Source: Escherichia coli (GTDB lineage Bacteria > Pseudomonadota > Gammaproteobacteria > Enterobacterales > Enterobacteriaceae). Taken from it: a stretch of DNA of 64,000 nucleotides. The translations under genes and the position numbers were made by a program. Location of the stretch: NCBI RefSeq assembly GCF_001677475.2, contig NZ_CP015229.1, one strand, 5' to 3'. Each line of letters begins with the position of its first letter. Position 1 is the stretch's first letter. Below, piece by piece: positions 13,409 through 51,863 of this stretch. Below the pieces are notes generated by a model that had not been told where the DNA came from, searched no databases, and saw nothing but the letters and a program-made list of their open reading frames with translations.

Positions 13409-13921
13409 ATGCTTACAATGATATTTAACCGCCTGAAACTTGCGGTAGACCGCGTCATTGCCGCGTTTTCTGTCGCCGTAATGCTTGCTCTGGTTGTATG
13501 CGTAGTCTGGCAAGTATTTAGCCGCTACGTACTTAACCAGCCAAGTACATTAACCGATGAGCTGGCACGCTTTTTGATGATCTGGGTAGGATTATTAGGT
13601 GCTGCATATACCGTCGGCGCGCAGAGACATCTCTCTATCGATTTATTTGCTCTCGCCCTGAATAAGCGCAAGCAATTACTTCTTAGTATAGTCATTAACG
13701 TTCTTATTTTAGGTTTTGCCGGTTCGGTCATTGTGACTGGTGGCCTGAAATTAATTGATAAAACACTGGCAACATCACAGGTATCTGCCGCGATGCAAAT
13801 ACCGATGGGATACGTATATATCATTCTGCCATTAAGTGGATTGGTGATGATGTTTTATGCCTTGTGTTTTATTAATCAAAGCATTCAACAACTGAAACAA
13901 CCTGCGCAGGAGGCCAGTTAA
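13409..13921 (+). CDS. TRAP transporter small permease (DctQ family)
   Basis: 170 aa, four hydrophobic segments; position between the SBP and the large permease. Confidence 0.7.
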   Translation: MLTMIFNRLKLAVDRVIAAFSVAVMLALVVCVVWQVFSRYVLNQPSTLTDELARFLMIWVGLLGAAYTVGAQRHLSIDLFALALNKRKQLLLSIVINVLILGFAGSVIVTGGLKLIDKTLATSQVSAAMQIPMGYVYIILPLSGLVMMFYALCFINQSIQQLKQPAQEAS

Positions 13922-14507
13922 TGGATAGTTATATCGCGCTTACACTGTTTGGCTGTTTTTTTGTGCTGGTCTTTATTGGTGTGCCCATTTCGTTCTCAAT
14001 CGGTATTGCCACTGTAGCTTCAATGCTGTTGATGTTTCCCTGGGATATCGCGGCAATCACTGTTTCGCAGCGACTGGCTAATGGACTGGATAACTTTGCC
14101 CTATTGGCAATCCCCTTTTTCATCTTTGCCGGAACGCTGATGAACAGCGGCGGTATTGCGATACGTTTGATTAACCTCGCCCAGGTAATGGTTGGCCGCG
14201 TTCCTGGTTCGCTTGGTCATGTGAACGTCCTGGCGAATATGATGTTTGGTTCCATTTCTGGTTCAGCCGTTGCGGCAGCTGCTGCCGTTGGTGGCACACT
14301 GAATCCCATTCAGACCAAAGAAGGTTATGATCCGGCATTTTCTACCGCTGTAAACGTCTCATCCTGTATTACTGGATTACTGATACCGCCCTCAAACGTG
14401 TTAATTGTGTTTTCCCTGACAGCTGGCGGCGTTTCTGTAGCATCGCTATTTATGGCGGGATATTTGCCAGGGATCTTAATGGGTCTCGCGGTAATGGTTG
14501 TCTGCGC
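13921..14507 (+). pseudogene. TRAP large permease (DctM family), N-terminal fragment truncated by IS66
   Basis: 196-aa hydrophobic ORF whose stop codon is created by the IS66 end; the C-terminal continuation is found at 45325-46046 on the minus strand. Confidence 0.75.
14501..14507. repeat. 7-bp direct repeat TCTGCGC (target duplication of the IS66 insertion in dctM, left copy)
   Basis: Same 7 bp found in reverse complement at 46040-46046, abutting the other IS66 copy. Confidence 0.6.
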
Positions 14508-14592
14508 GTAAGCGTAAACCGACCGCCGTATGTAGCCATTAGACAAGAATTGGTAACTTAGACGCCCATCTGACACAGACGGACATCTAAGT

Positions 14593-15012
14593 ATGGAATT
14601 ACAGGACTGGCGAAAAGAACCTCGTAAAAAGTATTCGAATGAATTCAAACTTCGTATGGTTGAACTGGCATCACAACCCGGTGCTTGTGTGGCTCAGATT
14701 GCACGAGAAAATGGCGTCAATGATAATGTTATTTTCAAATGGCTCAGACTCTGGCAAAACGAAGGGCGTATATCACGGCGTCTTCCGGTGACAACCACTT
14801 CTGATGCAGGCCTTGAATTATTACCTGTAGAGATAACCTCTGATGAGCCGAAAGAACCGATGGCTGCTCTTACTCCGCCCTTATCCACTCAGACTACTGT
14901 CAGTGCCAGCTCCTGCAAGGTGGAGTTCCGTCACGGTAACATGACGCTGGAAAATCCTTCACCAGAGCTGCTCACTGTATTGATTCGTGAACTGACCGGG
15001 AGGGGAAGATGA
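14593..15012 (+). CDS. IS66 family accessory protein (orfA/TnpA)
   Basis: 139 aa with HTH-like N-terminus; first gene of the IS66 triad. Confidence 0.85.
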   Translation: MELQDWRKEPRKKYSNEFKLRMVELASQPGACVAQIARENGVNDNVIFKWLRLWQNEGRISRRLPVTTTSDAGLELLPVEITSDEPKEPMAALTPPLSTQTTVSASSCKVEFRHGNMTLENPSPELLTVLIRELTGRGR

Positions 15013-15359
15013 TCTCACTCCCATCCGGTACCCGTATCTGGCTCGTTGCCGGGATAACCGATATGCGTAAGTCTTTCAACGGGCTGGGTGAACAGGTACA
15101 GCATGTGTTAAATGTTAATCCCTTCTCCGGTCACCTGTTTATCTTCCGTGGCCGACGGGGTGACACCGTTAAAATTCTTTGGGCTGATGCTGATGGTCTG
15201 TGCCTGTTCACCAAACGCCTGGAGGAAGGCCAGTTTATCTGGCCTGCGGTGCGTGACGGTAAGGTATCCATTACCCGCTCGCAACTGGCAATGCTCCTCG
15301 ATAAGCTGGACTGGCGTCAGCCAAAAACATCCCGCCTTAACGCCCTGACAATGTTGTAA
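15009..15359 (+). CDS. IS66 family accessory protein (orfB/TnpB)
   Basis: 116 aa; ATGA overlap with orfA. Confidence 0.85.
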   Translation: MISLPSGTRIWLVAGITDMRKSFNGLGEQVQHVLNVNPFSGHLFIFRGRRGDTVKILWADADGLCLFTKRLEEGQFIWPAVRDGKVSITRSQLAMLLDKLDWRQPKTSRLNALTML

Positions 15360-15389
15360 AAAACGCCTGGCCGCATTATAAAAACGGCC

Positions 15390-16982
15390 ATGAGTCAGAA
15401 ATACCTCATTCGCATTGCAGAACTGGAAAGCCAGCTCCGTCAGAAAGACCAGCAACTGAGTCTGGTTGAAGAGACGGAGGCCTTCCTGCGCTCTGCACTG
15501 GCACGTGCCGAAGAAAAGATCGAAGAAGATGAACGGGAAATAGAACATCTGCGGGCTCAGATAGAAAAACTGCGCCGGATGCTGTTCGGTACCCGTTCTG
15601 AAAAACTGCGTCGTGAAGTTGAACAGGCTGAGGCCCTGCTGAAACAACGCGAACAGGACAGCGATCGTTACAGTGGGCGGGAAGACGATCCACAGGTTCC
15701 CCGCCAGTTGCGACAGTCGCGCCATCGTCGTCCGTTACCGGCACACCTTCCCCGTGAAATACACCGTCTGGAGTCTGAAGAAAGTTGTTGCCCGGAATGT
15801 GGCGGCGAGCTGGATTATCTGGGGGAAGTCAGTACTGAGCAGCTGGAACTGGTGAGCAGCGCCCTGAAAGTGATCCGCACAGAACGGGTAAAAAAAGCCT
15901 GTACAAAATGTGACTGCATCATTGAAGCACCGGCGCCGTCCCGCCCGATAGAGCGTGGTATCGCGGGCCCCGGATTACTTGCCCGCGTGTTAACGGGAAA
16001 ATACTGCGAACACCTGCCACTGTATCGTCAGAGTGAAATCTTTGCCCGACAGGGTGTCGAACTGAGCCGTGCATTACTCTCCAACTGGGTTGACGCGTGC
16101 TGCCAGTTAATGATGCCGCTGAATGATGCCCTGTACCGTTATGTGATGAATACCCGCAAGCTTCACACTGACGACACACCGGTAAAGGTACTGGCACCGG
16201 GCTTGAAAAAGACGAAAACAGGGCGCATCTGGACGTATGTCCGGGATGATCGCAATGCGGGTTCGTCATCTCCTCCGGCGGTCTGGTTCGCGTACTCACC
16301 GAACCGGCAGGGGAAACACCCGGAGCAACACCTCCGCCCCTTCCGGGGTATCCTGCAGGCGGATGCGTTCACAGGTTATGACAGGCTGTTCAGTGCAGAA
16401 CGTGAAGGTGGTGCGCTGACAGAAGTTGCGTGCTGGGCCCATGCCCGGAGAAAAATCCACGATGTATACATCAGCAGCAAAAGTGCGACGGCAGAAGAAG
16501 CCCTGAAGCGAATCAGTGAACTGTACGCCATCGAGGATGAAATACGGGGATTACCAGAGTCAGAGCGTCTTGCAGTCAGACAGCAGCGAAGCAAAGCGTT
16601 ACTGACGTCGCTGCATGAATGGATGGTGGAGAAGAATGGCACGCTGTCGAAAAAATCCAGACTGGGCGAAGCGTTCAGCTATGTACTGAATCAGTGGGAC
16701 GCCCTCTGTTATTACAGTGATGACGGACTGGCGGAGACGGACAATAACACAGCGGAAAGAGCGCTTCGTGCAGTCTGTCTTGGAAAGAAAAATTACGTGT
16801 TCTTCGGTAGCGATCACGGTGGCGAGCGTGGTGCACTGCTATACGGGCTGATCGGCACCTGCCGTCTGAACGGTATCGATCCGGAAGCGTATCTGCGCCA
16901 TATTCTGAGCGTACTGCCGGAATGGCCCTCCAACCGTGTTGACGAACTCCTGCCATGGAACGTGGTTCTCACCAATAAATAA
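15390..16982 (+). CDS. IS66 family transposase (TnpC)
   Basis: 530 aa with N-terminal coiled coil/leucine zipper, CxxC zinc-finger motifs and DDE-type core. Confidence 0.9.
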   Translation: MSQKYLIRIAELESQLRQKDQQLSLVEETEAFLRSALARAEEKIEEDEREIEHLRAQIEKLRRMLFGTRSEKLRREVEQAEALLKQREQDSDRYSGREDDPQVPRQLRQSRHRRPLPAHLPREIHRLESEESCCPECGGELDYLGEVSTEQLELVSSALKVIRTERVKKACTKCDCIIEAPAPSRPIERGIAGPGLLARVLTGKYCEHLPLYRQSEIFARQGVELSRALLSNWVDACCQLMMPLNDALYRYVMNTRKLHTDDTPVKVLAPGLKKTKTGRIWTYVRDDRNAGSSSPPAVWFAYSPNRQGKHPEQHLRPFRGILQADAFTGYDRLFSAEREGGALTEVACWAHARRKIHDVYISSKSATAEEALKRISELYAIEDEIRGLPESERLAVRQQRSKALLTSLHEWMVEKNGTLSKKSRLGEAFSYVLNQWDALCYYSDDGLAETDNNTAERALRAVCLGKKNYVFFGSDHGGERGALLYGLIGTCRLNGIDPEAYLRHILSVLPEWPSNRVDELLPWNVVLTNK

Positions 16983-17012
16983 GCGTCAATACGGTGCTCC
17001 GTTGACGCTTAC

Positions 17013-19451: not shown

Positions 19452-20684
19452 ATGAATGATAATTTTTTAACGGAGAAAGTCCTTACTGGAGAGAATGTTC
19501 TGCGTGCAGCAATTGCTCGTATTGAGTGGATTTTTGAAACATTTCCATCAGTTTGTCTCTCTTTTTCCGGTGGTAAAGATTCCACCGTGCTTTTCCATCT
19601 TGTGGCTGATGTGGCCCGCAGGAAAAGACGTCGTTTCTCTGTACTGTTCATTGACTGGGAGGCTCAGTACCAGTGCACCATTGAACATATTCAGAAGATG
19701 CGGGAAATGTACTATGATGTGACGGAAACCTTTTACTGGGTGGCGCTTCCCCTGACCACGGTAAACGGTGTCTCGCAGTTTCAACCGGAGTGGATATGCT
19801 GGGAGCCTCGTGTGACCTGGGTTCGCCAGCCACCGGAAGAGGCCATTACGGATATGGCGTATTTTCCCTTTTACCGGTATGCCATGGCGTTTGAAGAATT
19901 TGTTCCGGCATTTTCTTCCTGGTTTGCTGGCAACCGGTGTGGAGTGGCAGTGCTGACCGGTGTCCGGGCGGATGAATCCCTCAACCGCTTTATGGGACTG
20001 GTGTCCCAGCGCAAACTGAGATATGCCAATGATAAGCCTTGGACCACGGCATCGCCTGAAGGGTTTTACTACACTATGTATCCGCTGTATGACTGGAAAA
20101 CTCGTGATATCTGGATATATCACACCAGAACCCGTGCCATCTACAATCCCCTGTATGATCTGATGTACCGTGCCGGCGTACCGTTACGCAACATGCGTGT
20201 CTGTGAACCTTTTGGTCCTGAACAACGTAAGGGACTGTGGCTTTACCATGTTCTGGAACCGGAAACCTGGGCCAGGATGTGTGAGCGGGTGTCAGGGGCT
20301 GCCAGCGGGGCACTTTATGCCAATGAAAGCGGGGCTTATTTTGCCCTGCGTAAGCGCATATCAAAACCAGCCCATCATACCTGGCGCAGCTATGCGATGT
20401 TTCTGCTGGATGTGATGCCGGAAAGAACGGCAGAACATTACCGCAACAAGATAGCTGTCTATCTGCGCTGGTATCAGACGCGGGGCTTCCCGGATGACAT
20501 CCCGGATGAACAGGAGAATGACCTGGGGAGCCGGGATATTCCGTCCTGGCGACGTATCTGTAAGACTCTCATAAAGAATGATTTCTGGTGCCGTACCCTC
20601 TCCTTCAGTCCGAACAAACCCCGGCACTATGAACGTTATCTGCAGCGTATGAAAGAAAGGAGGAAGGAATGGGGGATTCTGTGA
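19452..20684 (+). CDS. ibrA: PAPS-reductase-like protein, IbrA-like (co-activator of prophage gene expression)
   Basis: 410 aa with SGGKDS PP-loop motif near the N-terminus; partnered with a ParB-like gene as in the described ibrAB pair. Confidence 0.75.
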   Translation: MNDNFLTEKVLTGENVLRAAIARIEWIFETFPSVCLSFSGGKDSTVLFHLVADVARRKRRRFSVLFIDWEAQYQCTIEHIQKMREMYYDVTETFYWVALPLTTVNGVSQFQPEWICWEPRVTWVRQPPEEAITDMAYFPFYRYAMAFEEFVPAFSSWFAGNRCGVAVLTGVRADESLNRFMGLVSQRKLRYANDKPWTTASPEGFYYTMYPLYDWKTRDIWIYHTRTRAIYNPLYDLMYRAGVPLRNMRVCEPFGPEQRKGLWLYHVLEPETWARMCERVSGAASGALYANESGAYFALRKRISKPAHHTWRSYAMFLLDVMPERTAEHYRNKIAVYLRWYQTRGFPDDIPDEQENDLGSRDIPSWRRICKTLIKNDFWCRTLSFSPNKPRHYERYLQRMKERRKEWGIL

Positions 20685-21307
20685 CACCGGAGATACTGAG
20701 CAACATGATTCGTCAGTACTTCAGCCAGGAACGACCAGAAGAAGAGGCCATACAGGCCCTGAATCATCTGCGCAGGGTGCTTCATGAGGTCAGTCCATTT
20801 GCACAGGAGCCTGTGGACTGTGTGCTGTGGGTGAAAGCAGATGAGGTGGTGGCCAACGATTATAACCCCAATGTCATGGCGCCGGGTGAGAAGAAACTGC
20901 TGAAACATTCACTGGAGCAGGATGGGTTCACGCAGCCTGTGGTTGTCTCGGAAGAGAAGGAGCATTATCTGGTCGTGGATGGTTTTCATCGTCAATTACT
21001 GGGCAGGGAAGCAGGTACGGGAAAACGCCTGAAGGGCTGGTTGCCAGTGACCTGTATTAATCCGGAAAGAAAGGGACAGGCCTCACGTATTGCTGCAACC
21101 ATTAGACATAACCGGGCCAGGGGGAAGCACCAGATAACTTCAATGTCTGATATTGTCAGGGACCTGTCGCGGCTGGGCTGGACGGATGAACGTATTGGTA
21201 CGGAGCTGGGTATGGACCAGGATGAAGTTCTCAGGTTGAAACAGATTAGCGGGCTGACGGAGCTGTTTCTGGAAGAGGATTTCAGTCCGGCATGGACGGT
21301 TCGCTGA
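20669..21307 (+). CDS. ibrB: ParB-like nuclease domain protein, IbrB-like
   Basis: 212 aa; overlaps the ibrA 3' end by 16 nt; ParB/Srx-type N-terminal region. Confidence 0.7.
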   Translation: MGDSVTPEILSNMIRQYFSQERPEEEAIQALNHLRRVLHEVSPFAQEPVDCVLWVKADEVVANDYNPNVMAPGEKKLLKHSLEQDGFTQPVVVSEEKEHYLVVDGFHRQLLGREAGTGKRLKGWLPVTCINPERKGQASRIAATIRHNRARGKHQITSMSDIVRDLSRLGWTDERIGTELGMDQDEVLRLKQISGLTELFLEEDFSPAWTVR

Positions 21308-22755: not shown

Positions 22756-24954
22756 CTACTGAAGGTGTTTCTGCAGCCAGATGCACGTTCCTTTTATATC
22801 ATACGCCTGTGCCCCATACCCTTTAGCAAGCAAAGTCTCTGGTAAATACTCGTCATATTTATCCAGATACTTGTCGGGAACAACTGCAGCAAGCTCAAAC
22901 TCTGAAGGTAGCCCCGACAATAGCATTTTCTTAAGTGCACGCTGGACAGAGGCAACGCCTGAGTCCTCTACCTCTATCACACCTGCAAATGAACTGGCTT
23001 TAAAGCCACAACGTATAATCAGGGACGTAATTGTATTGACAATTTTATCCCCCATCCACGGGATCACGTAGCAGTTCTGACCACTGGCAATAAAACAGTC
23101 ATTTTGTAGATTGTAGCGTTGGAAGTTGTCACTTCCTTCCGCGAAGAGGCTTCTGGCTGCGGCATCAGCATAATCGACTCTCTTGTTGCCTACCGCGATA
23201 CGGTAATCATTTTCCCTGTAGATAGTGAGCATTTCCTGGCGAACAACATCATGAACAGACATCCCGGTACCACTGAATAGTGGCGGCTGACCGCCTTTAG
23301 TCGTCTCAACATAGATAACCTTTTTTTCAACCTCGATCTCTGTCACTTTCCAGCGCCGTCCGCCGAAGATGATGTGCTGCTCCGGCAAAAGTGGGGAGTC
23401 TACAGGCACTGTGCCAAGAGTTCGGTTTCCCGTTACAATGCGAAACTCCTCAGGTGTATTGAATACGGCATAAAACGTGTAGTGATTAGTCAGCTTCTCC
23501 CCCTCAGCCCCGACAACTATTTCACCGCTGGTTAGTTGAGTGAGCAGGCCACATGTCCCCATATGTTTAAGCAGACTTTTGAAGTCATTTATATCCACAT
23601 TCCGGAACGGACCTGTCTGGCAAAGTTGTGACCAGAGCTGATCGGCACGAACACCTCCCCATTGCGCAGTAATAGCCAGGATCTGGTGTAGTAGTGTGGA
23701 GTAATGTTTCTGCCGGATATCTGCAGGCTCGAACCAGCGCTTAGAGATCATCAACCTGATCATTGCCATCGCCTGAACCAACTGCAGCCGTAAATGATCC
23801 ACAATGCTGCTGGTTGCGGTAAGTTCAGGTTCAGTAATTAACATTCTCAGCACCGATGGGGAATCGCGCCGCCCTGAACGTCCCATGCGTTGACGCAGAC
23901 TGGAAACAGAATGCGGAGGTGTCACTTGTATGACAGACTGCACCTTACCAATATCAATACCCAGCTCCAGCGTCATTGTACAAACAGCGGTTGTGGGCAA
24001 ATTCCCTTTCTGCAGTCGGGCTTCAAGCGCCTCACGCAACTCCCTTGCAAGGGAACCATGATGAGGAAAGAATTCATTAGGAACGACATTTGCTTCACAC
24101 ATGTCGCTCAGTGTTGCCGCTATGCTTTCAGTACGCTTTCGACTGTTAGCAAAGACCAGGTGGGAATCGCCACGGCAGAGCCTGAAAATATCCGCGCAGA
24201 CGAGCTGTTCAGCAGAGCTCTGGAGCTCTTCTCCTTTTTCGGGCACCCGCTCAAGATAACCTTTAACCTGAACCTGTAGTGTGGCTTTGCTATTACTGTC
24301 TGTTACCGTTTCACAAGGTAATCTCTTATCCGGGCGCAATAGTTCTGGTACTTTTTCCAGCTCTCCCAGCGTGGCACTCAACGCGACACGGGGAACTGGA
24401 TTCAACTGGCGTCCCAGCACATGGTCAATTCTGTTAAGCAGAGAAAGCAGCTGTATACCACGCTCTGAGCCAATAAAAGCATGGAACTCATCAATAACAA
24501 TGTATGCCACAGAAGAAAACGCCTGTTTGAGCCAACCCAATGAGTTTATGAGCAAAGACTCAAGTGATTCAGGTGTGATAAGTAAGATGCCAGAAGGGGT
24601 TGTCCGTGCTTTCTTCTTTTTGCTTTGTGGTACATCCCCGTGCCAGGGCGTCACTTGCATTTCCAGGGCTTCACCAAGACTCTCAAGACGACGGTGTTGA
24701 TCGTTAATTAATGCCTTCAATGGACTGATATAGATAATGCCAAATCCACCAGTGAGATCTGCAATCGCTGAACAGGCAGGAAGAAAGAAAGCCTCTGTTT
24801 TACCCGCAGCTGTACCTGCACTAATTAGTACATCACGATCACGGGCTAAAATTGCCGGAATAGAGCTTTCCTGCAAGGGCCTTAAGGATGACCAGCCCTG
24901 CTTATAAACCCACTTACGGACACGGGGATCAAGACTATTGTAGGCACTACTCAT
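22756..24954 (-). CDS. SF2 DExH-box helicase (Lhr-like), third gene of a candidate defence operon (SngC-like)
   Basis: 732 aa with motif I AGTAAGKT, motif II DEFH, motif III SAT, motif VI QRMGRSGRR; ATGA start/stop overlap with the upstream ATPase gene. Confidence 0.8.
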   Translation of the reverse strand: MSSAYNSLDPRVRKWVYKQGWSSLRPLQESSIPAILARDRDVLISAGTAAGKTEAFFLPACSAIADLTGGFGIIYISPLKALINDQHRRLESLGEALEMQVTPWHGDVPQSKKKKARTTPSGILLITPESLESLLINSLGWLKQAFSSVAYIVIDEFHAFIGSERGIQLLSLLNRIDHVLGRQLNPVPRVALSATLGELEKVPELLRPDKRLPCETVTDSNSKATLQVQVKGYLERVPEKGEELQSSAEQLVCADIFRLCRGDSHLVFANSRKRTESIAATLSDMCEANVVPNEFFPHHGSLARELREALEARLQKGNLPTTAVCTMTLELGIDIGKVQSVIQVTPPHSVSSLRQRMGRSGRRDSPSVLRMLITEPELTATSSIVDHLRLQLVQAMAMIRLMISKRWFEPADIRQKHYSTLLHQILAITAQWGGVRADQLWSQLCQTGPFRNVDINDFKSLLKHMGTCGLLTQLTSGEIVVGAEGEKLTNHYTFYAVFNTPEEFRIVTGNRTLGTVPVDSPLLPEQHIIFGGRRWKVTEIEVEKKVIYVETTKGGQPPLFSGTGMSVHDVVRQEMLTIYRENDYRIAVGNKRVDYADAAARSLFAEGSDNFQRYNLQNDCFIASGQNCYVIPWMGDKIVNTITSLIIRCGFKASSFAGVIEVEDSGVASVQRALKKMLLSGLPSEFELAAVVPDKYLDKYDEYLPETLLAKGYGAQAYDIKGTCIWLQKHLQ

Positions 24955-26267
24955 AATCTGAAATTCGCCAGGCCATCATCGTCATCACTTTCCTCCACAA
25001 TGGCATCATCCATATCGCTGAGCTTGTCTTCTTCAATCGCCACCCCCTCAATGAGGGTTTGCCAGTTCATCGTTCTGTTTTGTTCCAGCACAGCCAGCAT
25101 ATCCAGAAAACCTTTTATGGTATTGCGGGGAGTTCGAAAGTAAGCATCTCCGATGGTTTTGCTGCAGTGATGCAGAAACCCGGTCAGAGCATCATCTGGC
25201 ACCAGATAATTTGCGGGATCTCCACCAGCATAAACATGACGAAGGTTTTTCAGTAAAATATACAGTTCCTCAGGAGTGAGGCTGGCAAGATGCAGCGTGG
25301 GGGACGAGTAGTCAATCACGCCAGCTTTCTGTGCGAATCGGTTTTCTGCCAGACGCGACTGGAGCGCTTCATAGCTGTAGAGCCCCTTACGTGGATCGAA
25401 AAGAAATTCTGGCGTCCCCCCGAGGATAAAACCAATATTTTCGGCGGAGCCTTGCAGGCAGTCATTCAGGATCCGCAAAATTTGTTCGTAGTTGGCCGTT
25501 CTCGCTTGCGTATTATTCAACTTGAAGAGGTTCACCATCTCGTCGAGGCTAACTAAAAGTCCGGCATAGCCTGCCTGACGGACAAAAAGGCTCATCAACT
25601 TCAAAGAATCATAGAACGAGGCGTCTGAGATAATCGTTCGGACGTCAAGATCATTACGGGCATCAGTTTTTGTGGTGTACTCGCCCCGCAACCAGCGAAT
25701 AGCATTGGATTTTAAGGTTTCGTTATCCTGCTCATGCCCGCGCCAGAATGCGTCAATGACCTTCGCAAAGTCATATCCTCCCACCATATCTGACAAAGCA
25801 GCAAGGCGTTTATGAATAACGGATGAGACCAGGGAGCCGTTCGCATCAGCTTCCTTCCTTGCCTCAGTAACAAACCTTTCCACAACGCTAAGTAATGCAT
25901 TGCCATCTGGTTTGTTTCTGGTGGACATATTTTTCATAAGCTCTGAGTAGAGATTACGAGCCTGACCTCCCGATGAGTGGATACGTCTGTCGGGAGAAAG
26001 GTCTGCACTGACCGTGACCAGCTTCTTCTCTAACGCAATAGACCGTACAACACTTAAAAAGAATGTTTTCCCGGAACCGTACTCACCAATGATAAGTCTG
26101 AAGCTTGCCCCGCCATCAGCAATCCGTTCAATATCCTGATGGAGGGCGGTTATCTCATTCACGCGGCCAACCTGGATATGCTGAATACCTATTCTTGGCG
26201 TTACTCCCGACTTAAGTGACTGAATGATAGCGTCGCGCTCTTTCACTCTTATACGTGTTACAGACAT
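24951..26267 (-). CDS. P-loop ATPase, second gene of the candidate defence operon (SngB-like)
   Basis: 438 aa with Walker A GEYGSGKT and Walker B-like LLVSLDEM; acidic C-terminus. Confidence 0.8.
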   Translation of the reverse strand: MSVTRIRVKERDAIIQSLKSGVTPRIGIQHIQVGRVNEITALHQDIERIADGGASFRLIIGEYGSGKTFFLSVVRSIALEKKLVTVSADLSPDRRIHSSGGQARNLYSELMKNMSTRNKPDGNALLSVVERFVTEARKEADANGSLVSSVIHKRLAALSDMVGGYDFAKVIDAFWRGHEQDNETLKSNAIRWLRGEYTTKTDARNDLDVRTIISDASFYDSLKLMSLFVRQAGYAGLLVSLDEMVNLFKLNNTQARTANYEQILRILNDCLQGSAENIGFILGGTPEFLFDPRKGLYSYEALQSRLAENRFAQKAGVIDYSSPTLHLASLTPEELYILLKNLRHVYAGGDPANYLVPDDALTGFLHHCSKTIGDAYFRTPRNTIKGFLDMLAVLEQNRTMNWQTLIEGVAIEEDKLSDMDDAIVEESDDDDGLANFRL

Positions 26268-26270
26268 TCA

Positions 26271-28580
26271 CTAACCCTCTAATTCTTTGGCTATTTCCAG
26301 GTCAATCCAAATGTGATCATCAGCATCTTCCAGCACTGGTGCATCAACCACCGCATAGGACCAATCGTTAATCACCTCAAGCGCACCGCCGAGCATCAGG
26401 TTCCAGTTACTACACAACTCTGTCGCCTCTTTTCTGGACCATTGTTCTTTCTCCAGCAACCTGCGATAAAGTTGGCTATGAGCGGAGTCAAGTCCCCCTT
26501 CCCCGGTTAATGAGGCTGGAGCGCTTTCTGGTTGTTCTGGTTCTTCTTCAGTGAAAATTGAGTTCAGTAATTTACGAACATCATCAGTGGCAGATTCGTG
26601 GCGGGCAAGTACGTTGGCATCCAGCGTAAACCCTGCCGTCGACTGATTAGCTGGTACAGATGAAACGAGAGCAGTTTCAGTTGCGGAATGCTGATGGATA
26701 TTGCTTGATACGGATGAGGGATCCAGTCCCAGGCTTGTATAAATCTTCTCAAGCTGTTTGATTTCGGCAGGCGTAATTCTGCCGTCAGAGCAAGCGACAC
26801 TAACGATAACCTTACCCACAGCTGATTTTTCCGCTGCACCGAGTAATTCAATCCGGCTTTTCATTCCCGTCATATTCGCCGGAGTATGAAGCTGCCACGT
26901 TAAATATGCGTGCAGAGAGCGCTTTTCATCATCGCTGAAGCTGGCATTGTTGTTGATGGCATTCTCAAGCACTTTCTGTTCGGCTTGATCGAGAGAATTG
27001 TCAATCAAGGCGACTACCGAACCTAATCGGAGCGTCAATACAGCTGTGATAAATTCAGGAGAAGGTGAGAAACGTCCTCTTTCACCAGCAGGGAATAAAA
27101 CAAGTACACCATCGACATCTGCCTTTACGTGGTGGTGATAGGGGTCAGGAGCCAGACAGTATCCCATTTTCTGTGCAAAGGCTTGCATTAAGTCGGCCTC
27201 TTTTTTATTGATCTTCGCCGGACAGGTGGCATTCATATGTGACCAGTAGTCAGCAACTGAAACTATCCCACCCTTACTGCGGATTGCGTCATCAGCCCAG
27301 TGTTTGAATGTACTTAATATTTTTTCTGCGCTTTCGTTAACGATTTCTGAAGGCAGCAACAAAATTGCAGCGGTATCATTTGCTGAAGTACCTTTTCTAC
27401 CAAGGTAACGACTGTAAGCATCCAGTTCACCTGTGCATATATCGGCAATGGCCATAAGCTTCTGAACAGGGCCTTTCAATGCACCTGGATCAGGCAAGTC
27501 GGGAACAGGAAGCCGAATACCTCGCAAACTGGGACTTGCAGGCGTGTAATCTAAACGCAGACGCGCTTTATTCGGCTTCACTACCATCCCTTCACCGTAT
27601 TTAAGGGTGTAACGCCGTTTAAATAGTGCAGCAAATTCTTTCGCACAGCGGCGGGCGGGGGTTCGTAATGAGTATTCAGCATGGTTTGTCACCCACGTCA
27701 GAGCCAGATCCGCTGGAACCGGGGCTCCTGTATCAACAGTCTTTGCCAGGATTAACCTGAACTGCATGCTATTGCTGAACTCCGAATCATCGTTGAGAGC
27801 TGCTGCAAGATTTTCGTTCGGACGAAGAATGGACATCGCTTCAAGTAACTGGGATGAGTAATTCCGGAAAGATCGGTTTTCATTGAAAACCGATCTGAGA
27901 CGGCAGATCTCTTTGAAAAGAGAATAGAACTCATCGTCGGATATATTGTTGTCCCTGCTGTCAACAAGCGCCCTTCTTTCCAGACCATACAGATAAATGA
28001 AAACGTAACCAATTGGGCAGGAAGTGTCGCATCTGTCGCTGGCAAGCCAACTCAGGTACGCACCACGAGCTTCAGGTGAAAGTGAGGAAAAACTGGGCCA
28101 ATACCCTAATGAACTATCTTCGTAAATGTAAGGTGTGGGGGATATTTTAAGCGTGTCGTCAACTAGCGATGCCTCGTTATTGCCATCATAATAACCGCCT
28201 GAGTTATGCCCGGCAGGTTTCATACGCTGCCCAAGATAGAAGTGACCGCCGGTAACCTCTATCCCACTGACTGTGATCATCTCTCCCGGAAAAATCCAAC
28301 GAGCCAAAGCACCGGTAGTTTTTGAGAAATTCTGGCGTTGAGTGGCTGTTATGCTGTATTCGACATTCCGCCCGCCACTTAGTGTAAACGTAGCCAGATT
28401 GTCATCTTCGCTGTCCTCGTTTTGCATTACAGACTGATTTTTTTTGTTGTTAGCAAGCCATTCTTTAGGTGGTGCTTTCACAGGAGCGGAAGTATAAGAG
28501 CCCGCGGACTTAGTTTTCTTCTTTTTGAAAAAAAGAATATAAATCAAATAAATAGCTACTATAAATATCCATAACTCCAT
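26271..28580 (-). CDS. large N-terminally membrane-anchored protein, first gene of the candidate defence operon (SngA-like; TerB domain not verified)
   Basis: 769 aa; N-terminal hydrophobic helix MELWIFIVAIYLIYILFF followed by KKKK; 3-nt spacing to the ATPase gene. Confidence 0.7.
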   Translation of the reverse strand: MELWIFIVAIYLIYILFFKKKKTKSAGSYTSAPVKAPPKEWLANNKKNQSVMQNEDSEDDNLATFTLSGGRNVEYSITATQRQNFSKTTGALARWIFPGEMITVSGIEVTGGHFYLGQRMKPAGHNSGGYYDGNNEASLVDDTLKISPTPYIYEDSSLGYWPSFSSLSPEARGAYLSWLASDRCDTSCPIGYVFIYLYGLERRALVDSRDNNISDDEFYSLFKEICRLRSVFNENRSFRNYSSQLLEAMSILRPNENLAAALNDDSEFSNSMQFRLILAKTVDTGAPVPADLALTWVTNHAEYSLRTPARRCAKEFAALFKRRYTLKYGEGMVVKPNKARLRLDYTPASPSLRGIRLPVPDLPDPGALKGPVQKLMAIADICTGELDAYSRYLGRKGTSANDTAAILLLPSEIVNESAEKILSTFKHWADDAIRSKGGIVSVADYWSHMNATCPAKINKKEADLMQAFAQKMGYCLAPDPYHHHVKADVDGVLVLFPAGERGRFSPSPEFITAVLTLRLGSVVALIDNSLDQAEQKVLENAINNNASFSDDEKRSLHAYLTWQLHTPANMTGMKSRIELLGAAEKSAVGKVIVSVACSDGRITPAEIKQLEKIYTSLGLDPSSVSSNIHQHSATETALVSSVPANQSTAGFTLDANVLARHESATDDVRKLLNSIFTEEEPEQPESAPASLTGEGGLDSAHSQLYRRLLEKEQWSRKEATELCSNWNLMLGGALEVINDWSYAVVDAPVLEDADDHIWIDLEIAKELEG

Positions 28581-28809: not shown

Positions 28810-28990
28810 TAATATTTTAATGGATTGTTAATCTTCGCATACTCAAAGGGGCTGGTATTTTCTTTCGAGTTTGTATCCAGAAAATCCCCCCACCACTGTA
28901 GCATCAACCGACGCTATTCCAGGTGTTCTGTTTTATGGATATAAGCCGCCCTTAATGAATTACGTTCCATGTGGCTCATCTGACGTTCAG
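28810..28990 (-). pseudogene. remnant of the 3' end of a second P4-type integrase gene
   Basis: ~180 bp closely similar to the 3' end of the intact integrase gene at 31928 (encodes ...AKINNPLK-like C-terminus); same flanking hairpin CCGGGCA...TGCCCGG. Confidence 0.6.
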
Positions 28991-29208
28991 CCGCTTTATC
29001 TCGTGCTGTTTTGGTCTTAATACTTCCATGCCGCTGCGATTACCTCTTAAACCCGCCCTTACCATTTTTATGGGTACGATAAGAAAACTTTATCGGGCAC
29101 GATCGATTTTATCGATCGATTCGATCGAAAACATTCCTTTTACCCTATCTTTTGCATGGTTTTAGAATGAGCAACCCCATTTATCGTTCGGGGAAAGTGA
29201 TAGCGGAG

Positions 29209-29958
29209 ATGATTGAAATGAATAAGGTTATTGCGGTTTCAGCGCTTGCCATGGCAGGCATGTTTTCGACCCAGGCTCTGGCTGATGAGAGCAAAACAGG
29301 CTTTTATGTGACCGGTAAAGCAGGTGCTTCTGTTATGTCACTTGCAGACGAGCGTTTCCTGTCGGGTGATGGAGAGGAAACATCAAAATATAAAGGCGGT
29401 GATGGCCATGATACGGTATTCAGTGGCGGTATCGCGGCCGGTTATGATTTTTACCCGCAGTTCAGTATTCCGGTTCGTACGGAACTGGAGTTTTACGCTC
29501 GTGGAAAAGCTGATTCGAAGTATAACGTAGATAAAGACAGCTGGTCAGGCGGTTACTGGCGTGATGACCTGAAGAATGAGGTGTCAGTCAACACACTGAT
29601 GCTGAATGCGTACTATGACTTCCGGAATGACAGTGCATTCACACCATGGGTATCTGCAGGGATTGGCTACGCCAGAATTCACCAGAAAACAACCGGTATC
29701 AGTACCTGGGATTATGGGTACGGAAGCAGTGGTCGCGAATCGTTGTCACGTTCAGGCTCTGCTGACAACTTCGCATGGAGCCTTGGCGCGGGTGTCCGCT
29801 ATGACGTAACCCCGGATATCGCTCTGGACCTCAGCTATCGCTATCTTGATGCAGGTGACAGCAGTGTGAGTTACAAGGACGAGTGGGGCGATAAATATAA
29901 ATCAGAAGTTGATGTTAAAAGTCATGACATCATGCTTGGTGTGACTTATAACTTCTGA
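29209..29958 (+). CDS. putative outer-membrane beta-barrel protein
   Basis: Signal peptide (…AMAGMFSTQALA), alternating beta-strand-like pattern, C-terminal ...LGVTYNF with terminal Phe. Confidence 0.55.
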   Translation: MIEMNKVIAVSALAMAGMFSTQALADESKTGFYVTGKAGASVMSLADERFLSGDGEETSKYKGGDGHDTVFSGGIAAGYDFYPQFSIPVRTELEFYARGKADSKYNVDKDSWSGGYWRDDLKNEVSVNTLMLNAYYDFRNDSAFTPWVSAGIGYARIHQKTTGISTWDYGYGSSGRESLSRSGSADNFAWSLGAGVRYDVTPDIALDLSYRYLDAGDSSVSYKDEWGDKYKSEVDVKSHDIMLGVTYNF

Positions 29959-30109
29959 CAAAACTGCTCCTGAAAGATAATAATTACCCATCTTCTGTAA
30001 TTAAACGAAGACTCCCTGCAGTAATTATACTGCAGGGTTGTTTGTTATCTGTTTCACAGGAGACTTCTGATTTTTATTCTCTTCACAATAATGTTGTCGA
30101 TATACTCCG

Positions 30110-31609
30110 ATGAATATCAGAAAGCTGTTTTATACGGACAATATATCCCGGATTTTATTGTTTTTATTCTTCCCGGGCATGTGTGTAATAACCACTGCCG
30201 CATGCGGATACACTGAGAAGAATGCCACCGGGAATGTGTTGCTGCTGTTTCTCCTTCTGATTCTTGCACACAGAAATACCCTTACATCCATTACAGCTCT
30301 GTTATTTCTGTTCTGTTGTGCACTGTATGCACCTGTCGGTATGACGTACGGAAAAATCAACAACAGTTTTATTGTCGCGTTGTTGCAGACCACGGCGGAT
30401 GAGGCTGCGGAGTTTACCGGGATGATTCCTGTTTATCATTTTCTGGTCAGTGCCGCGATTCTGGTGTTCATGGTTATTTTCTGGCGGACACACCACCGTG
30501 GTCAACGTAACGCGATGGCTCTGTTGTTATTCGTATTATGCTCTGTAAACAGCTGGCCGTTACGGATGGTTAAAGGAACAGTTGTGGGGACAACTGACAC
30601 ATTGCGTGAAATGCAGCGTTATGAACAACTGAGTCGGCACGGTGCTGACAGCTGGAAAATCCTGCCGGGAGCACCATTATATGACACGATTGTTATTGTT
30701 ACTGGTGAGAGTGTCCGCAGGGATTATATGTCGGTATATGGTTATCCCGAGCCAACCACACCATGGCTGAATACGGCTCCCGGTTTATTTATTGACGGTT
30801 ATACATCGGCAGCAGCCAGCACCGTGCCTTCCCTGAGCCGGACACTGATTTATGACTATGAGCAGAACCCTGATTCCGGCAACAACGTGGTGGCGCTGGC
30901 AGCAAAAGCAGGATACAGCACATGGTGGATATCCAATCAGGGAAAACTGGGAGAGCATGACACACGCATCTCTGTTATTGCTTCTGATGCGGACCATACT
31001 GTTTTCCTCAAGAAAGGCAGCTTTGCTTCCCGTAAAACGGATGACATGTTGTTGTTACAGGAAACAGAACGTGCGCTGGCAGATACATCCACTCCGAAGG
31101 TGATTTTCCTGCACATGATGGGGTCTCATCCGAACCCGTGTGATCGGCTTCACTCCTGGCAGAATAATTACCTGGAGCAGTATTCCCGAAAAATTGCCTG
31201 TTATCTTGCCAGCATCAGTAAACTGGATAACTTTCTTGGTCAGCTTGATGGTATCCTTCGCCGACACTCACGTCATTTCGCCATGCTTTACTTTTCTGAC
31301 CATGGGCTGTCGGTCAGCGACAGTGCTAATCCTGTTCATCATGATGGTCATGTGCAGGGAGGCTACAGCGTGCCCCTGATTATTACCGCCAGTGATATAA
31401 CCTCTCATCAGTCCCTCAGCAGAAAAATCAGTGCCCGTCATTTCACAGGTATTTTTCAGTGGCTGACCGGTATTCGTACCGAAAATATACCGCCATTCAA
31501 TCCACTGACAGACGAAGATAATGAACGCATTATGGTTTTTAACGGAGAGAGGTATGTACAGGAAGACAGTCTGAAACCGCAGCCGCTTATTCTTCCGGAC
31601 CACAGGTAA
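30110..31609 (+). CDS. sulfatase-family phosphoethanolamine transferase-like membrane protein
   Basis: 499 aa; N-terminal transmembrane segments then IVIVTGESVRRDYMSVYGY and HMMGSHPNPCDR motifs resembling EptA/YhbX-type enzymes. Confidence 0.6.
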   Translation: MNIRKLFYTDNISRILLFLFFPGMCVITTAACGYTEKNATGNVLLLFLLLILAHRNTLTSITALLFLFCCALYAPVGMTYGKINNSFIVALLQTTADEAAEFTGMIPVYHFLVSAAILVFMVIFWRTHHRGQRNAMALLLFVLCSVNSWPLRMVKGTVVGTTDTLREMQRYEQLSRHGADSWKILPGAPLYDTIVIVTGESVRRDYMSVYGYPEPTTPWLNTAPGLFIDGYTSAAASTVPSLSRTLIYDYEQNPDSGNNVVALAAKAGYSTWWISNQGKLGEHDTRISVIASDADHTVFLKKGSFASRKTDDMLLLQETERALADTSTPKVIFLHMMGSHPNPCDRLHSWQNNYLEQYSRKIACYLASISKLDNFLGQLDGILRRHSRHFAMLYFSDHGLSVSDSANPVHHDGHVQGGYSVPLIITASDITSHQSLSRKISARHFTGIFQWLTGIRTENIPPFNPLTDEDNERIMVFNGERYVQEDSLKPQPLILPDHR

Positions 31610-31927: not shown

Positions 31928-33193
31928 TTACTGTTTTAATGGATTATTAATCTTTGCATATTCAAATGGACTGATAAATCTTTCTCTGTTTGCATCCAGA
32001 AAATCGGCCCACCATTGTAGCATCAAGCGGCGTTCTTCCAGATGTTCTGCTTTATGAATGTAAGCAGCACGTACACCGTTACGTTCCTGATGGCTCATCT
32101 GACGTTCAACAGCATCGCGGGACCACAAACCTGATTCTATTAACGCACTACATGCCATCGCCCGGAACCCATGACCACAGACATCCCGGGTTGTGTCATA
32201 CCCCATAACCCTCAGGGCTTTATTTACGGTGTTTTCACTGATTGGTTTACGTGGGTCATGTGCTCCCGTAAAGATCAGACCATTTTCACCAGCCCATGTC
32301 TGAAGTTCTGCCAGTATGGCTACAGCCTGTTTGCTGAGTGGCACAAGATGTGGTGTTCGCATCTTGGATCCCCGGTGTGAGAATTTTACGCCTGGCAGAG
32401 GTTCGCGCTCAGCTGGAATAGTCCACATGGCATTGTCAATATCAATTTCCGACCAGCGGGCATATCTGAGTTCACTGGAACGAATAAAAACCAGTAAATT
32501 CAGCATAACTGCCAGTTGGGTGACAGGCTGGCCTTTATAACCGTCAATACGCGACAGAAGTTCAGGCAGGCGTGAAAGATCCAGAGCAGGGCGGTGCTGG
32601 CGTTTTACCGTGGTCAATGCACCAGCCATATCCAGAGCCGGGTTATATCTGATGATGCCAGACTGTACGGCATAACGCATTACAGCAGATATTCTTTGCT
32701 GCAGACGACTGGCGATTTCATAAATTTGTTTAGCTTCTGCAGCACGAACAGGGATAAGCAGGTCCGGGGTACTGAGTGTTGTGATATCCCGGTTGCCGAT
32801 AAAGGGGAAAACGTGTGTCTCGAGGCTTTTGAGTACTTTATCGCTGTGTGATTGTGCCCATTGTTTATTACTGACATGCCAGCGTCGTGCAATATGTTCA
32901 AAAGAGAGTTGTAAATCAGGGACTACTTTTTTAGCTCTTTTCTGTTCGCAAGGGTCAATCCCCTCCGAAATCAGTTTTCGGGCCTCATCCCGTTTTGTAC
33001 GAGCTTCGGAGAGAGAAACTTCCGGATACACACCAAGTGCCAGAGTCTTCTCCTTACCCAGAATACGATAACGGAGACGCCAGTAACGGGAACCATTGGG
33101 ATGTACCAGCAGGAACATGCCAGCCCCGTCAGTGAGTTTATAAGCCTTGTCAGTGGGCTTTGCAGCCCGGATTTTTGCGTCAGTCAGTGCCAT
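31928..33193 (-). CDS. P4-type tyrosine integrase
   Basis: 421 aa, MALTDAKIRAAKPTDKAYKLTDG... typical of P4-like integrases; adjacent to the pheV 3' end. Confidence 0.9.
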   Translation of the reverse strand: MALTDAKIRAAKPTDKAYKLTDGAGMFLLVHPNGSRYWRLRYRILGKEKTLALGVYPEVSLSEARTKRDEARKLISEGIDPCEQKRAKKVVPDLQLSFEHIARRWHVSNKQWAQSHSDKVLKSLETHVFPFIGNRDITTLSTPDLLIPVRAAEAKQIYEIASRLQQRISAVMRYAVQSGIIRYNPALDMAGALTTVKRQHRPALDLSRLPELLSRIDGYKGQPVTQLAVMLNLLVFIRSSELRYARWSEIDIDNAMWTIPAEREPLPGVKFSHRGSKMRTPHLVPLSKQAVAILAELQTWAGENGLIFTGAHDPRKPISENTVNKALRVMGYDTTRDVCGHGFRAMACSALIESGLWSRDAVERQMSHQERNGVRAAYIHKAEHLEERRLMLQWWADFLDANRERFISPFEYAKINNPLKQ

Positions 33194-33390: not shown

Positions 33391-33466
33391 TGGTGCCCGG
33401 ACTCGGAATCGAACCAAGGACACGGGGATTTTCAATCCCCTGCTCTACCGACTGAGCTATCCGGGC
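33391..33466 (-). tRNA. pheV: tRNA-Phe (GAA anticodon)
   Basis: Reverse complement reads GCCCGGATAGCTCAGTCGGTAGAGCAGGGGATTGAAAATCCCCGTGTCCTTGGTTCGATTCCGAGTCCGGGCACCA. Confidence 0.95.
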
Positions 33467-45285: not shown

Positions 45286-45326
45286 TTTGCCGGATAATAT
45301 AAAAGTTATCCGGCAAATTATTTTTT
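45286..45326. terminator. terminator hairpin after yggM
   Basis: GCCGGATAA...TTATCCGGC followed by a T-run. Confidence 0.6.
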
Positions 45327-46046
45327 ACATTAGCCCTAGTAGCTGTGGAATGAACAAGGATATTTGCGGAATGTAAGTGATCATCATCAACGCTACTAGC
45401 AATGCAGCATAAAATGGCAGCAATGGTTTGATTAAATGTTGAATCTTCACACCCGAGATAGAACAACCAACAAATAGCGCACTACCCACCGGCGGTGTTA
45501 ACAGCCCAATACAAAGGTTGGCCACCATCATAATACCGAAATGTACAGGGTCCATTCTCAGCTCTTGTGCAATCGGCAAGAAGATCGGTGTAAAGATTAG
45601 TACAGCCGGTGTCATGTCCATAAAGATGCCGACAATTAATAAGACGATATTAATCAGCAGCAATATGATCAGTGGGTTATCAGAAATCCCCATCAACGCG
45701 TCGCTGATCATATAAGGAATATCAGCATTGGTCATTGCCCAGGACATGCCCACGGAAAAACCGATCAACAGTAATACAATCGAAGTGGTAACAACCGATT
45801 CCAGAATCAGTTTGGGTAAGTCGCGCCATTTTACTTCCCGGTAAATCAGCACCGAGAGAATAAATGTGTAGACAACGGCAATTGCTGACGCTTCAGTTGC
45901 GGTAAAAATGCCGCCCAGAATGCCGCCCATCACAATGAACACCAGAAGCAAACTTGGTAGGGCATCCAGAAACGCTTTACAGGCCTGAGCAAAGGTTGCT
46001 CTTTCTGAAAGTGGGTAACCACGGCGTTTAGCAATAATGGCGCAGA
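45325..46046 (-). pseudogene. TRAP large permease (DctM family), C-terminal fragment
   Basis: Hydrophobic frame running from the IS66 junction at 46046; in-frame continuation (...VVCA|IIAKRRGYPLSERATF...) of the fragment at 13921-14507. Confidence 0.75.
46040..46046. repeat. 7-bp direct repeat (GCGCAGA, reverse complement of TCTGCGC), right copy of the dctM target duplication
   Basis: Matches 14501-14507 in reverse complement; both abut IS66 ends. Confidence 0.6.
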
Positions 46047-46076
46047 GTAAGCGTCAACGGAGCACCGTATTGACGC

Positions 46077-47669: not shown

Positions 47670-47699
47670 GGCCGTTTTTATAATGCGGCCAGGCGTTTT

Positions 47700-48466: not shown

Positions 48467-48551
48467 ACTTAGATGTCCGTCTGTGTCAGATGGGCGTCTA
48501 AGTTACCAATTCTTGTCTAATGGCTACATACGGCGGTCGGTTTACGCTTAC

Positions 48552-48559
48552 CGCTGGCC
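48552..48559. repeat. 8-bp target-site duplication (CGCTGGCC), second copy
   Basis: Reverse complement of GGCCAGCG at 17013-17020. Confidence 0.8.

Positions 48560-50075: not shown

Positions 50076-51863
<1,788 letters not shown>

Follow-up and report, generated by a model that had tools for sequence, protein, structure and literature searches.

hra1 and an OpgE-related phosphoethanolamine transferase gene as neighbouring cargo of an Escherichia coli pheV island

Islands of E. coli in which a 'sulfatase' gene accompanies an adhesin gene have been described before. In the LAA island a 'sulfatase' (ORF4), its function listed as unknown, accompanies hes (ORF5), with a P4-type integrase at pheV (PMC5539235); SE-PAI carries the same two-gene cassette as a 'sulfatase' and tia (PMC7545054), and a bacteraemia GWAS reported a 'putative opgE' near pap (PMC8946752). 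OpgE adds phosphoethanolamine (pEtN) to osmoregulated periplasmic glucans (OPGs) (PMC3818809). In H. ducreyi the OpgE-like PtdA and PtdB leave lipid A as it is, yet they alter surface charge and defensin resistance (PMC4406763). On the adhesin side, autoaggregation, haemagglutination and aggregative adherence have been shown experimentally for Hra1 of EAEC 042 (PMC5863034, PMC5539235), to which the adhesin described below is near-identical. Here we compare these systems with a pair of genes in 64,000 nucleotides of E. coli chromosome (the window), and find the pair to be ordinary and already catalogued.

Two intact plus-strand genes lie between a P4-type integrase with tRNA-Phe (pheV) on one side and a Shango defence system on the other: hra1 (heat-resistant agglutinin 1; 29218..29958) and an intact yjgX-type, OpgE-related pEtN transferase gene (30110..31609; 499 aa). 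Over 4.9 kb the window and the EAEC 042 locus share 99% identity. The tyrosine integrase of the island (31928..33193, minus strand) has Arm-DNA-bind_3, Phage_int_M and Phage_integrase domains and is annotated by PGAP as an integrase in 042, and the tRNA-Phe gene identified by ARAGORN (33391..33466, minus strand) is its probable integration site. The published 23-nt LAA direct repeat corresponds to the 3' end of this tRNA gene (33391-33413); no second copy, which would mark the far island boundary, was found within the window when up to three mismatches were allowed. The island extends beyond the window and is also rearranged by inversion, the whole locus being carried, in this assembly, on a 29-kb IS66-mediated inversion. 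Directly upstream of hra1, tblastn located what is left of the C-terminus of another, diverged P4-type integrase (28815..29006, minus strand); it corresponds to residues 358-420 at 77% identity to the intact integrase, and in 042, CT30 and CUVET17-972 it carries an integrase-pseudogene annotation. An earlier description of this interval from its letters alone (the original prediction) had proposed two open reading frames carried as island cargo; both are intact on the plus strand, the first ending at 29958 and the second spanning 30110-31609, and the flanking integrase and tRNA-Phe agree with the island setting. Its statement that they lie directly downstream of the integrase holds for adjacency but not for transcription, since the pair converges on the integrase.

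The product of hra1 belongs to the Hra/Hek/Hes/Tia family of outer-membrane beta-barrel adhesins and autoagglutinins. It matches 042 Hra1 at 244 of 246 residues (99.2%) and Tia at 66.5% identity, and a profile search returned OMP_b-brl (PF13505; E 1.1e-23, 84.7 bits against a cut-off of 28.7), in agreement with the secreted beta-barrel protein that had been proposed. The start called by PGAP, ATG 29218, yields a canonical signal peptide, MNKVIAVSALAMAGMFSTQALA|DESK, with an AxA site that can be read from the sequence, and the PGAP annotation of 042 has this CDS too. Two alternative starts are in frame, ATG 29167, used in the published clone, and 29209, used in the original prediction. The forward primer published for cloning hra1 has an exact match at 29167. 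Its reverse partner gave no match with up to one substitution allowed; this primer has one extra A in its A run, which a substitution-only search cannot match. By identity, signal peptide and OMP profile the gene is assigned to hra1, and its product would be exported by Sec and inserted in the outer membrane as an integral beta-barrel, conferring the three phenotypes known from 042.

The 499-aa protein is predicted to be a membrane enzyme of the sulfatase-fold pEtN transferase superfamily, as originally proposed. Both sulfatase-family motifs that had been pointed out are present (GESVRRDYMSVYGY, residues 199-212; HMMGSHPNPCDR, residues 335-346), within a match to Sulfatase (PF00884) at residues 193-445 (E 2.2e-36, 126.2 bits against a cut-off of 25). 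The other domain named for the profile check, EptA_B_N (PF08019), was a near miss at 20.9 bits against a threshold of 22.3, although precomputed matches to it exist for some close homologues. Residues E200, T238, D312, H335, H340, D397 and H398 are invariant across 57 homologues and align with their equivalents in EptA, EptB, EptC, OpgE and YhbX; H411, the exception in this alignment, is nearly invariant among the homologues (nearly so in A1, invariant in A2). Loss of the catalytic residues on alignment to EptA had been named as grounds for abandoning the original prediction, and these residues are conserved. Four or five hydrophobic helices in residues 12-157 form an N-terminal polytopic membrane domain. 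An AF2 model of the protein (pLDDT 90.8) retrieved the EptC catalytic domain with Foldseek (8.8e-20) and, over the full length, MCR-1 (9nww, TM 0.61) and EptA (5fgn, TM 0.57), with probability 1.00. The Thr nucleophile, the Glu, Asp and His metal ligands, the layout of membrane and catalytic domains and the modelled whole-chain fold thus assign the protein to the pEtN transferases. It would sit in the inner membrane and carry a metal-dependent periplasmic domain of sulfatase fold, in which Thr238 would attack the phosphate of phosphatidylethanolamine to give a phospho-enzyme intermediate; pEtN would then be handed to an acceptor on the periplasmic side, with release of diacylglycerol.

The acceptor was judged from where the enzyme stands within the superfamily. 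The original prediction grouped it with EptA- and MCR-type enzymes, so that it would place pEtN on lipid A (or on the Kdo/heptose core), lower the negative charge of LPS and alter susceptibility to polymyxin, serum or phage. Superfamily, fold and catalytic residues shared with EptA and MCR-1 agree with this reading, as does the closest solved structure by sequence, the catalytic domain of E. coli EptC, a heptose-I enzyme (E 1.8e-18). Some homologues at 50-57% identity are also named 'lipid A phosphoethanolamine transferase' in databases, and the OpgE-like PtdA and PtdB affect defensin resistance and surface charge; these names are automatic, however, and PtdA and PtdB left lipid A unmodified. 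Moreover, the NCBIfam models for EptA, EptB, CptA and MCR all scored between 19 and 111 bits against cut-offs of 404-1250: those for EptA/PmrC and MCR reached 18.8-72.4 bits against 500-1250, and those for CptA (EptC, heptose-I) 111 bits against 404 and 88.7 against 900. No OpgE model was among the NCBIfam matches of the protein. Of its K-12 paralogues, BLASTP placed OpgE closest (32% identity over 456 aa, E 2e-75), ahead of YhbX (2e-28), EptC (1e-23), EptB (1e-11) and EptA (21% identity, E 1e-8). Overall identity is 18-21% to EptA, EptB and EptC versus 31-32% to OpgE, and a neighbour-joining tree made the protein sister to OpgE. In the literature searched we found no report of the function of this transferase, and none tying this very common gene to colistin resistance. 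We regard an EptA- or MCR-like role as unlikely, though it deserves some weight, and the lipid A grouping with its implied polymyxin phenotype is unsupported by the model scores and by OpgE being the closest K-12 paralogue.

These comparisons suggest that the enzyme is, by sequence, a paralogue rather than an orthologue of E. coli OpgE. Because its clade is sister to OpgE and not to EptA, EptB, EptC or MCR, a periplasmic glycan is the favoured acceptor. An OPG-like periplasmic glucan is a tentative first candidate, and the LPS core or another surface glycan a slightly more doubtful second; lipid A itself would be improbable at best. Against the glucan, an identity of 31-32% to OpgE leaves the acceptor unfixed, and since E. 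coli already has a core opgE, a redundant island enzyme for OPGs would not be obviously useful. The paralogues found on IncI-type plasmids, together with the H. ducreyi data, point to a surface target over OPGs.

By its sequence the transferase gene is the intact counterpart of yjgX, a pseudogene in K-12, and its product is 100% identical to the neighbour protein of Hra1 in EAEC 042 (EC042_RS16960). Among 5426 complete E. coli genomes, some part of the gene occurs in 3132 and at least 80% of it in only 1450. Disrupted copies are frequent, as in K-12 yjgX and in S88, where IS21 is inserted. Such frequent truncation and interruption argues for a dispensable role. On that basis the gene could be a decaying passenger with no current function, kept only through its place between the integrase and an adhesin gene under selection: truncations, frameshifts and IS disruptions are common, and among genomes that match at all, over half have no copy that covers at least 80% of the gene. 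In the window, however, the reading frame is intact and no catalytic residue is lost, at least 1000 contigs encode the exact protein, and dN/dS between alleles 92% identical is 0.17, which indicates purifying selection. We therefore consider a functionless passenger very improbable.

The pairing of the two genes is common. They are adjacent in 1387 of the 5426 genomes and, seen from the transferase side, lie next to each other and point the same way in 1387 of the 1450 with an intact transferase gene. This could mean that they form a functional unit, in which the transferase would modify the adhesin or the surrounding LPS and tune the exposure, charge or self-association of Hra-family proteins. 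The pairing is retained with Hra1, Hes, Tia and a leuX variant, and in a diverged Salmonella cassette, where protein identity falls to 53% and 57%; pEtN transferases with protein targets are also known, PMC4406763 citing the C. jejuni flagellum and the N. gonorrhoeae type IV pilus. Against such a unit, hra1 alone gives laboratory E. coli aggregation and adherence (PMC5863034, PMC5539235), K-12 and HB101 being without an intact transferase copy. Moreover, hra2-like genes lack a transferase neighbour, and in S88 the disrupted transferase stands beside an intact tia. Between Hra1- and Tia-type cassettes, synonymous divergence is 1.16 for the outer-membrane protein (OMP) gene and 0.23 for the transferase gene (the comparison with the Salmonella cassette was saturated). 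These discordant values led us to reject co-divergence of the two genes and argue for allele shuffling instead. Deep conservation of the pairing was likewise rejected: homologues of the transferase at or below 52% identity, on IncI-type plasmids, in Erwinia and Enterobacter lignolyticus and on other chromosomes, stand without an OMP neighbour, and a search of species-representative genomes by tblastn and a custom HMM found an Hra-like or OmpX-like ORF within 3.5 kb at none of 80 loci at or below 40% identity. This limits the pairing to the E. coli/Salmonella cassette.

The region between the two genes also argues against a functional unit. A terminator-like hairpin on the plus strand (30014..30037), with a 10-bp stem CCCTGCAG...CTGCAGGG followed by the T-rich tail TTGTTTGTTA, separates them and is kept in tia-type cassettes; given this conserved element, hra1 and the transferase gene are probably transcribed separately. 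Control of the transferase by PhoP was rejected, as the PhoP-box-like site TGTTTG-N5-TGTTTC (30039-30055) overlaps the terminator tail; this site is missing from the tia-type and Salmonella cassettes. In all, we consider a functional unit quite improbable. Its adjacency count of 1387 of 1450 also fits a functional link, but is treated as linkage in the explanation we favour, in which the genes most likely share carriage in a mosaic mobile cassette and do not form an obligate partnership of enzyme and substrate. By this explanation, which on balance we hold to be the likely one, hra1 is linked through shared carriage to a yjgX-type pEtN transferase of the OpgE-sister clade with a glycan acceptor. 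The interval would then comprise two separately terminated cargo genes that belong to the integrase-proximal module of the pheV island.

Upstream of hra1, a promoter-like site (29139..29168, plus strand; TTTACC-18-TAGAAT) matches the consensus at 9 of 12 positions, its designation being a consensus match only. It is preceded by a triple-GATC element, CGATCGATTTTATCGATCGATTCGATCGAA (29100..29129), with GATC at 29101, 29114 and 29123. The 13- and 9-nt spacing recurs upstream of S88 tia, the CUVET variants and the Salmonella homologue, and the hra2-like variant, with four GATC sites, contains it as well. The element matches the regulatory GATC region of K-12 agn43 at 19 of 21 positions, and by this likeness may be a candidate Dam/OxyR-type switch. 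We found no report of phase variation of Hra-family genes in the literature searched. One could speculate that an Hra-family gene and a yjgX-type transferase constitute a surface-remodelling cassette, the adhesin gene being turned ON and OFF at the triple-GATC element through a Dam/OxyR mechanism like that of agn43 while pEtN on the LPS core or on the adhesin modulates adhesin exposure or charge. We give this proposal little credence. If true, it would establish a new acceptor specificity among the enzymes of the OpgE-like clade; a real Dam/OxyR switch upstream of Hra-family genes could explain hra1 phenotypes that are 'masked' in vitro.

The significance of the locus is small, hra1 being a characterised accessory colonisation factor. 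Since hra1 is well studied and the closest studied relative of the transferase decorates periplasmic glucans, the pair is an ordinary one with no evident colistin-resistance gene. A label of the mobile colistin-resistance type has no support here, and the transferase should not be flagged in that way. The gene is automatically annotated, over half of the complete E. coli genomes carry all or some of it, and the OpgE-like clade to which it belongs is very common, under purifying selection, and borne on islands and plasmids. The identity of its acceptor would also explain the bacteraemia GWAS signal for the transferase next to pap.

Among described systems, the locus of EAEC 042 is the nearest: hra1 there likewise adjoins pheV, the integrase and the transferase gene, the region upstream is also the same, and the window allele of Hra1 differs by E45Q and L189F and nothing else. 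The LAA, SE-PAI and GWAS loci have the two-gene cassette in common, likewise at pheV next to a P4-type integrase, but differ in their OMP allele, Hes or Tia, and in their further island cargo. The original prediction had described the beta-barrel and the pair correctly as seen, without recognising either the Hra1 adhesin or this common, previously listed cassette. K-12 yjgX (b4575) shares 89% amino acid identity over residues 177-499, and about 91% at the DNA level, and its 3' end similarly faces a P4-type integrase at a tRNA gene (leuX-intB-IS2-yjgX in K-12; pheV-int-gene here). Unlike the intact copy in the window, that of K-12 is missing its first ~313 nt, carries a frameshift and does not adjoin an Hra-family gene. 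With EptA/PmrC, EptB, EptC/CptA and MCR-1 the enzyme has in common its superfamily, fold, Thr nucleophile and metal ligands, whereas identity of 18-21%, scores far under the curated cut-offs and a separate clade set it apart. The H. ducreyi genome has a locus with about 30% identity across residues 15-499; the relation to PtdA and PtdB is distant. OpgE (YbiP) resembles it in domain layout and catalytic residues, including H411, which corresponds to OpgE H439 and is absent from that column in EptA, EptB, EptC and YhbX; even the neighbourhood is alike, as K-12 opgE adjoins ompX, a gene for a small beta-barrel OMP. The window enzyme is nevertheless only about 31% identical to OpgE and 28 residues shorter, and it is accessory and island-borne where OpgE is core.

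The original prediction placed a secreted beta-barrel protein gene beside a gene for a 499-residue membrane enzyme, and both proved to be real, intact open reading frames. The former ends at 29958 and its product matches Pfam OMP_b-brl (E 1.1e-23), with a textbook signal peptide ending in AxA from the PGAP start at 29218; other in-frame starts lie at 29209, as originally predicted, and at 29167, the start of the published clone. The protein differs from Hra1 of enteroaggregative E. coli (EAEC) strain 042 at 2 of 246 residues, and the published forward primer for cloning the 042 hra1 gene has an exact match at 29167. The published reverse primer gave no match in a substitution-only search; as printed it has one extra A relative to the window. 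The beta-barrel gene is hra1. In EAEC, Hra1 has been characterised as an autoagglutinin and accessory colonisation factor (PMC5863034); Hek, Hes, Hra2 and Tia are its fellow family members (PMC5539235). Of 5426 complete E. coli genomes, 1812 carry genes of this family.

The 499-residue frame (30110–31609, + strand) contains both motifs on which the prediction drew. Of the two domains expected, Sulfatase was found at E 2.2e-36, whereas EptA_B_N fell just below the Pfam threshold. The protein is 100% identical to its counterpart in 042 and occurs in exactly this form on at least 1000 contigs. Its K-12 counterpart is the pseudogene yjgX, 5′-truncated, frameshifted and located beside leuX, intB and IS2, which retains 89% amino-acid identity across residues 177–499. 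With a dN/dS of 0.17, the transferase gene is, by this measure, under purifying selection. In an alignment of 57 homologues E98, E200, T238, D312, H335, H340, D397 and H398 are invariant and H411 nearly so. All align with equivalent positions in K-12 EptA, EptB, EptC, OpgE and YhbX except E98 (Leu in EptB) and H411; the catalytic residues are thus conserved relative to EptA, H411 apart. The residues that align correspond to the metal ligands and Thr285 nucleophile of MCR-1. AlphaFold gave a confident model (pLDDT 90.8, pTM 0.84), which Foldseek matched to the EptC catalytic domain (8.8e-20) and, over the whole chain, to MCR-1 (9nww, TM 0.61) and EptA (5fgn, TM 0.57). Because of these residues, the model and the structural matches, general phosphoethanolamine (pEtN)-transfer chemistry is well supported by homology. 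The enzyme would act at the periplasmic face, taking pEtN from phosphatidylethanolamine via a phospho-threonine intermediate.

The prediction likened this enzyme to EptA, YhbX and MCR, with altered polymyxin, serum or phage susceptibility as the implied consequence; the superfamily held, but neither the subfamily nor the implied phenotype did. NCBIfam models for EptA, EptB, CptA and MCR all scored 19–111 bits against cut-offs of 404–1250. Among five K-12 paralogues OpgE was the best BLASTP match (32%, E 2e-75), followed by YhbX (26%, 2e-28), EptC (25%, 1e-23), EptB (24%, 1e-11) and EptA (21%, 1e-8), and a rough neighbour-joining tree placed the island transferase clade as sister to OpgE, away from EptA, EptB and EptC. 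OpgE attaches pEtN to osmoregulated periplasmic glucans (PMC3818809), and the OpgE-like PtdA and PtdB of H. ducreyi alter surface charge while leaving lipid A unmodified (PMC4406763). On these grounds we place the enzyme as an OpgE-related paralogue whose acceptor is probably a glycan; among the serious candidates, lipid A ranks last. In K-12, core opgE adjoins ompX, also a small beta-barrel outer-membrane protein (OMP) gene, in convergent orientation (5451–7598 of comparison locus L017); the arrangement recalls that on the island, where an OpgE-like transferase is paired with an Hra-family OMP, and may be coincidence.

The distribution of the pair speaks for a stable cassette. An hra-family gene and the transferase gene are adjacent in 1387 complete E. 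coli genomes, compared with 1450 that have an intact transferase gene and 1754 that have an hra-family gene. The pairing is kept with tia in S88 and APEC O1, in a leuX variant and in a Salmonella cassette with proteins showing 53% and 57% identity to their counterparts in the window. Other observations argue against an obligate partnership. A conserved terminator-like hairpin separates hra1 from the transferase gene, hra2-like genes occur without a transferase neighbour, and in S88 the transferase is IS-disrupted while the adjoining tia is intact. In laboratory strains hra1 alone suffices for its phenotypes (PMC5863034, PMC5539235). Comparison of the Hra1-type cassette (29218–31609) with a Tia-type cassette (locus L020, 4001–6421) gave a dS of 1.16, near saturation, for the OMP genes, whereas that of the transferase genes was 0.23 (92% amino-acid identity). 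Alleles have therefore been shuffled, and the contrast indicates that the adhesin allele was replaced within a conserved cassette. Transferase homologues at ≤52% identity stand alone, on IncI-type plasmids and other enterobacterial chromosomes, and no OMP neighbour was found at 80 loci from species-representative genomes. Our reading is of a mosaic, mobile, integrase-proximal cassette, in which a direct functional link between the two genes is possible. Two paralogues 50–52% identical to the window transferase (L002, 6001–7536; L005, 192–1736) likewise have no OMP neighbour; their surroundings (hok/gef, exclusion protein, nuclease) resemble an IncI-type conjugative-plasmid backbone, and they look like putative plasmid-borne envelope pEtN transferases. 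One cluster comprises 1955 sequences.

A tRNA-Phe gene (33391–33466, − strand) is flanked by yqgA, speC, nupG, mltC, mutY and trmB, the same genes that surround pheV in 042 and K-12, which places the island at the chromosomal pheV site. A 4.9-kb query spanning the pair, integrase and tRNA showed 99.0–99.7% identity to many complete E. coli genomes, 042 included, with ≥80% coverage in 424 of 5426. The pair does adjoin a P4-type integrase identified by profile search (31928–33193, − strand); rather than lying downstream of it as predicted, it is transcribed towards it. Directly upstream of hra1 is an integrase remnant (28815–29006, − strand). It consists of the final ~63 codons of another, diverged P4-type integrase, with 77% amino-acid identity to the intact one. 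Such a remnant also accompanies the OMP gene at leuX in strain CT30 and in strain CUVET17-972, and therefore travels with the cassette. Immediately beside hra1 is a complete three-gene Shango defence system (22756–28580, − strand), detected by PADLOC as SngC (DEAD-box helicase, E 4.6e-278), SngB (BrxC/D-type ATPase, E 8.7e-187) and SngA (TerB-N/TerB-C protein, E 2.5e-99). Between it and an IS66 copy, at 19452–21307 (+ strand), lie PAPS-reductase-like and IbrB-like genes (an IbrA/IbrB-type pair), then a gene that the 042 annotation gives as a PerC-family regulator.

Two IS66-family copies of 2505 nt, 100% identical and in inverted orientation (14508–17012 and 46047–48551), bracket a 29,034-nt segment holding the proximal island with the pair, pheV and the core genes yqgA to yggM. 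Set against the gene order of K-12, this segment is inverted with respect to metK–yggW (421–12073). The dctM gene is split into halves (13921–14511, + strand; 45325–45951, − strand), and only flipping the segment back restores the 8-bp target duplication CGCTGGCC. The junction was found in none of 5426 complete genomes, so the inversion is peculiar to this strain or else an artefact of assembly. Beyond the second IS66 copy, the distal island (48552–64000) encodes a NERD/UvrD-type helicase (50076–51863), a T5orf172/MUG113-domain protein (52056–53300) and a chaperone-usher fimbrial usher (61454–63931).

Upstream of hra1, and of a promoter-like site at 29139–29168, the element CGATCGATTTTATCGATCGATTCGATCGAA (29100–29129) carries three GATC sites with intervals of 13 and 9 nt. 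This spacing is conserved upstream of the S88 tia variant, the CUVET variant and the 53%-identical Salmonella homologue, although the flanks have diverged, and recurs among four GATC sites upstream of an hra2-like variant. The element matches the regulatory GATC region of K-12 agn43, an OxyR/Dam switch, at 19 of 21 positions. The OxyR half-site is ATAGxTxxxAxCTAT. The palindrome ATCGAT-N3-ATCGAT agrees with 8 of its 10 specified positions, the half-site being printed slightly differently in PMC2909390, where GATC pairs 13 nt apart in gtr sit inside OxyR half-sites. These likenesses suggest, as a lead, Dam/OxyR phase variation of Hra-family adhesins, of which a literature search found no report.

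The original interpretation is thus partly supported. A literature search found no functional study of the 499-residue enzyme. The cassette itself has already been catalogued: in the LAA island (PMC5539235), where the pairing is kept with hes and ORF4 is labelled 'sulfatase, unknown'; in SE-PAI, as integrase, 'sulfate' [sulfatase], Tia and ShiA (PMC7545054); and under the name 'putative opgE', for genes close to pap and to integrases that are associated with a urinary portal of entry (PMC8946752).
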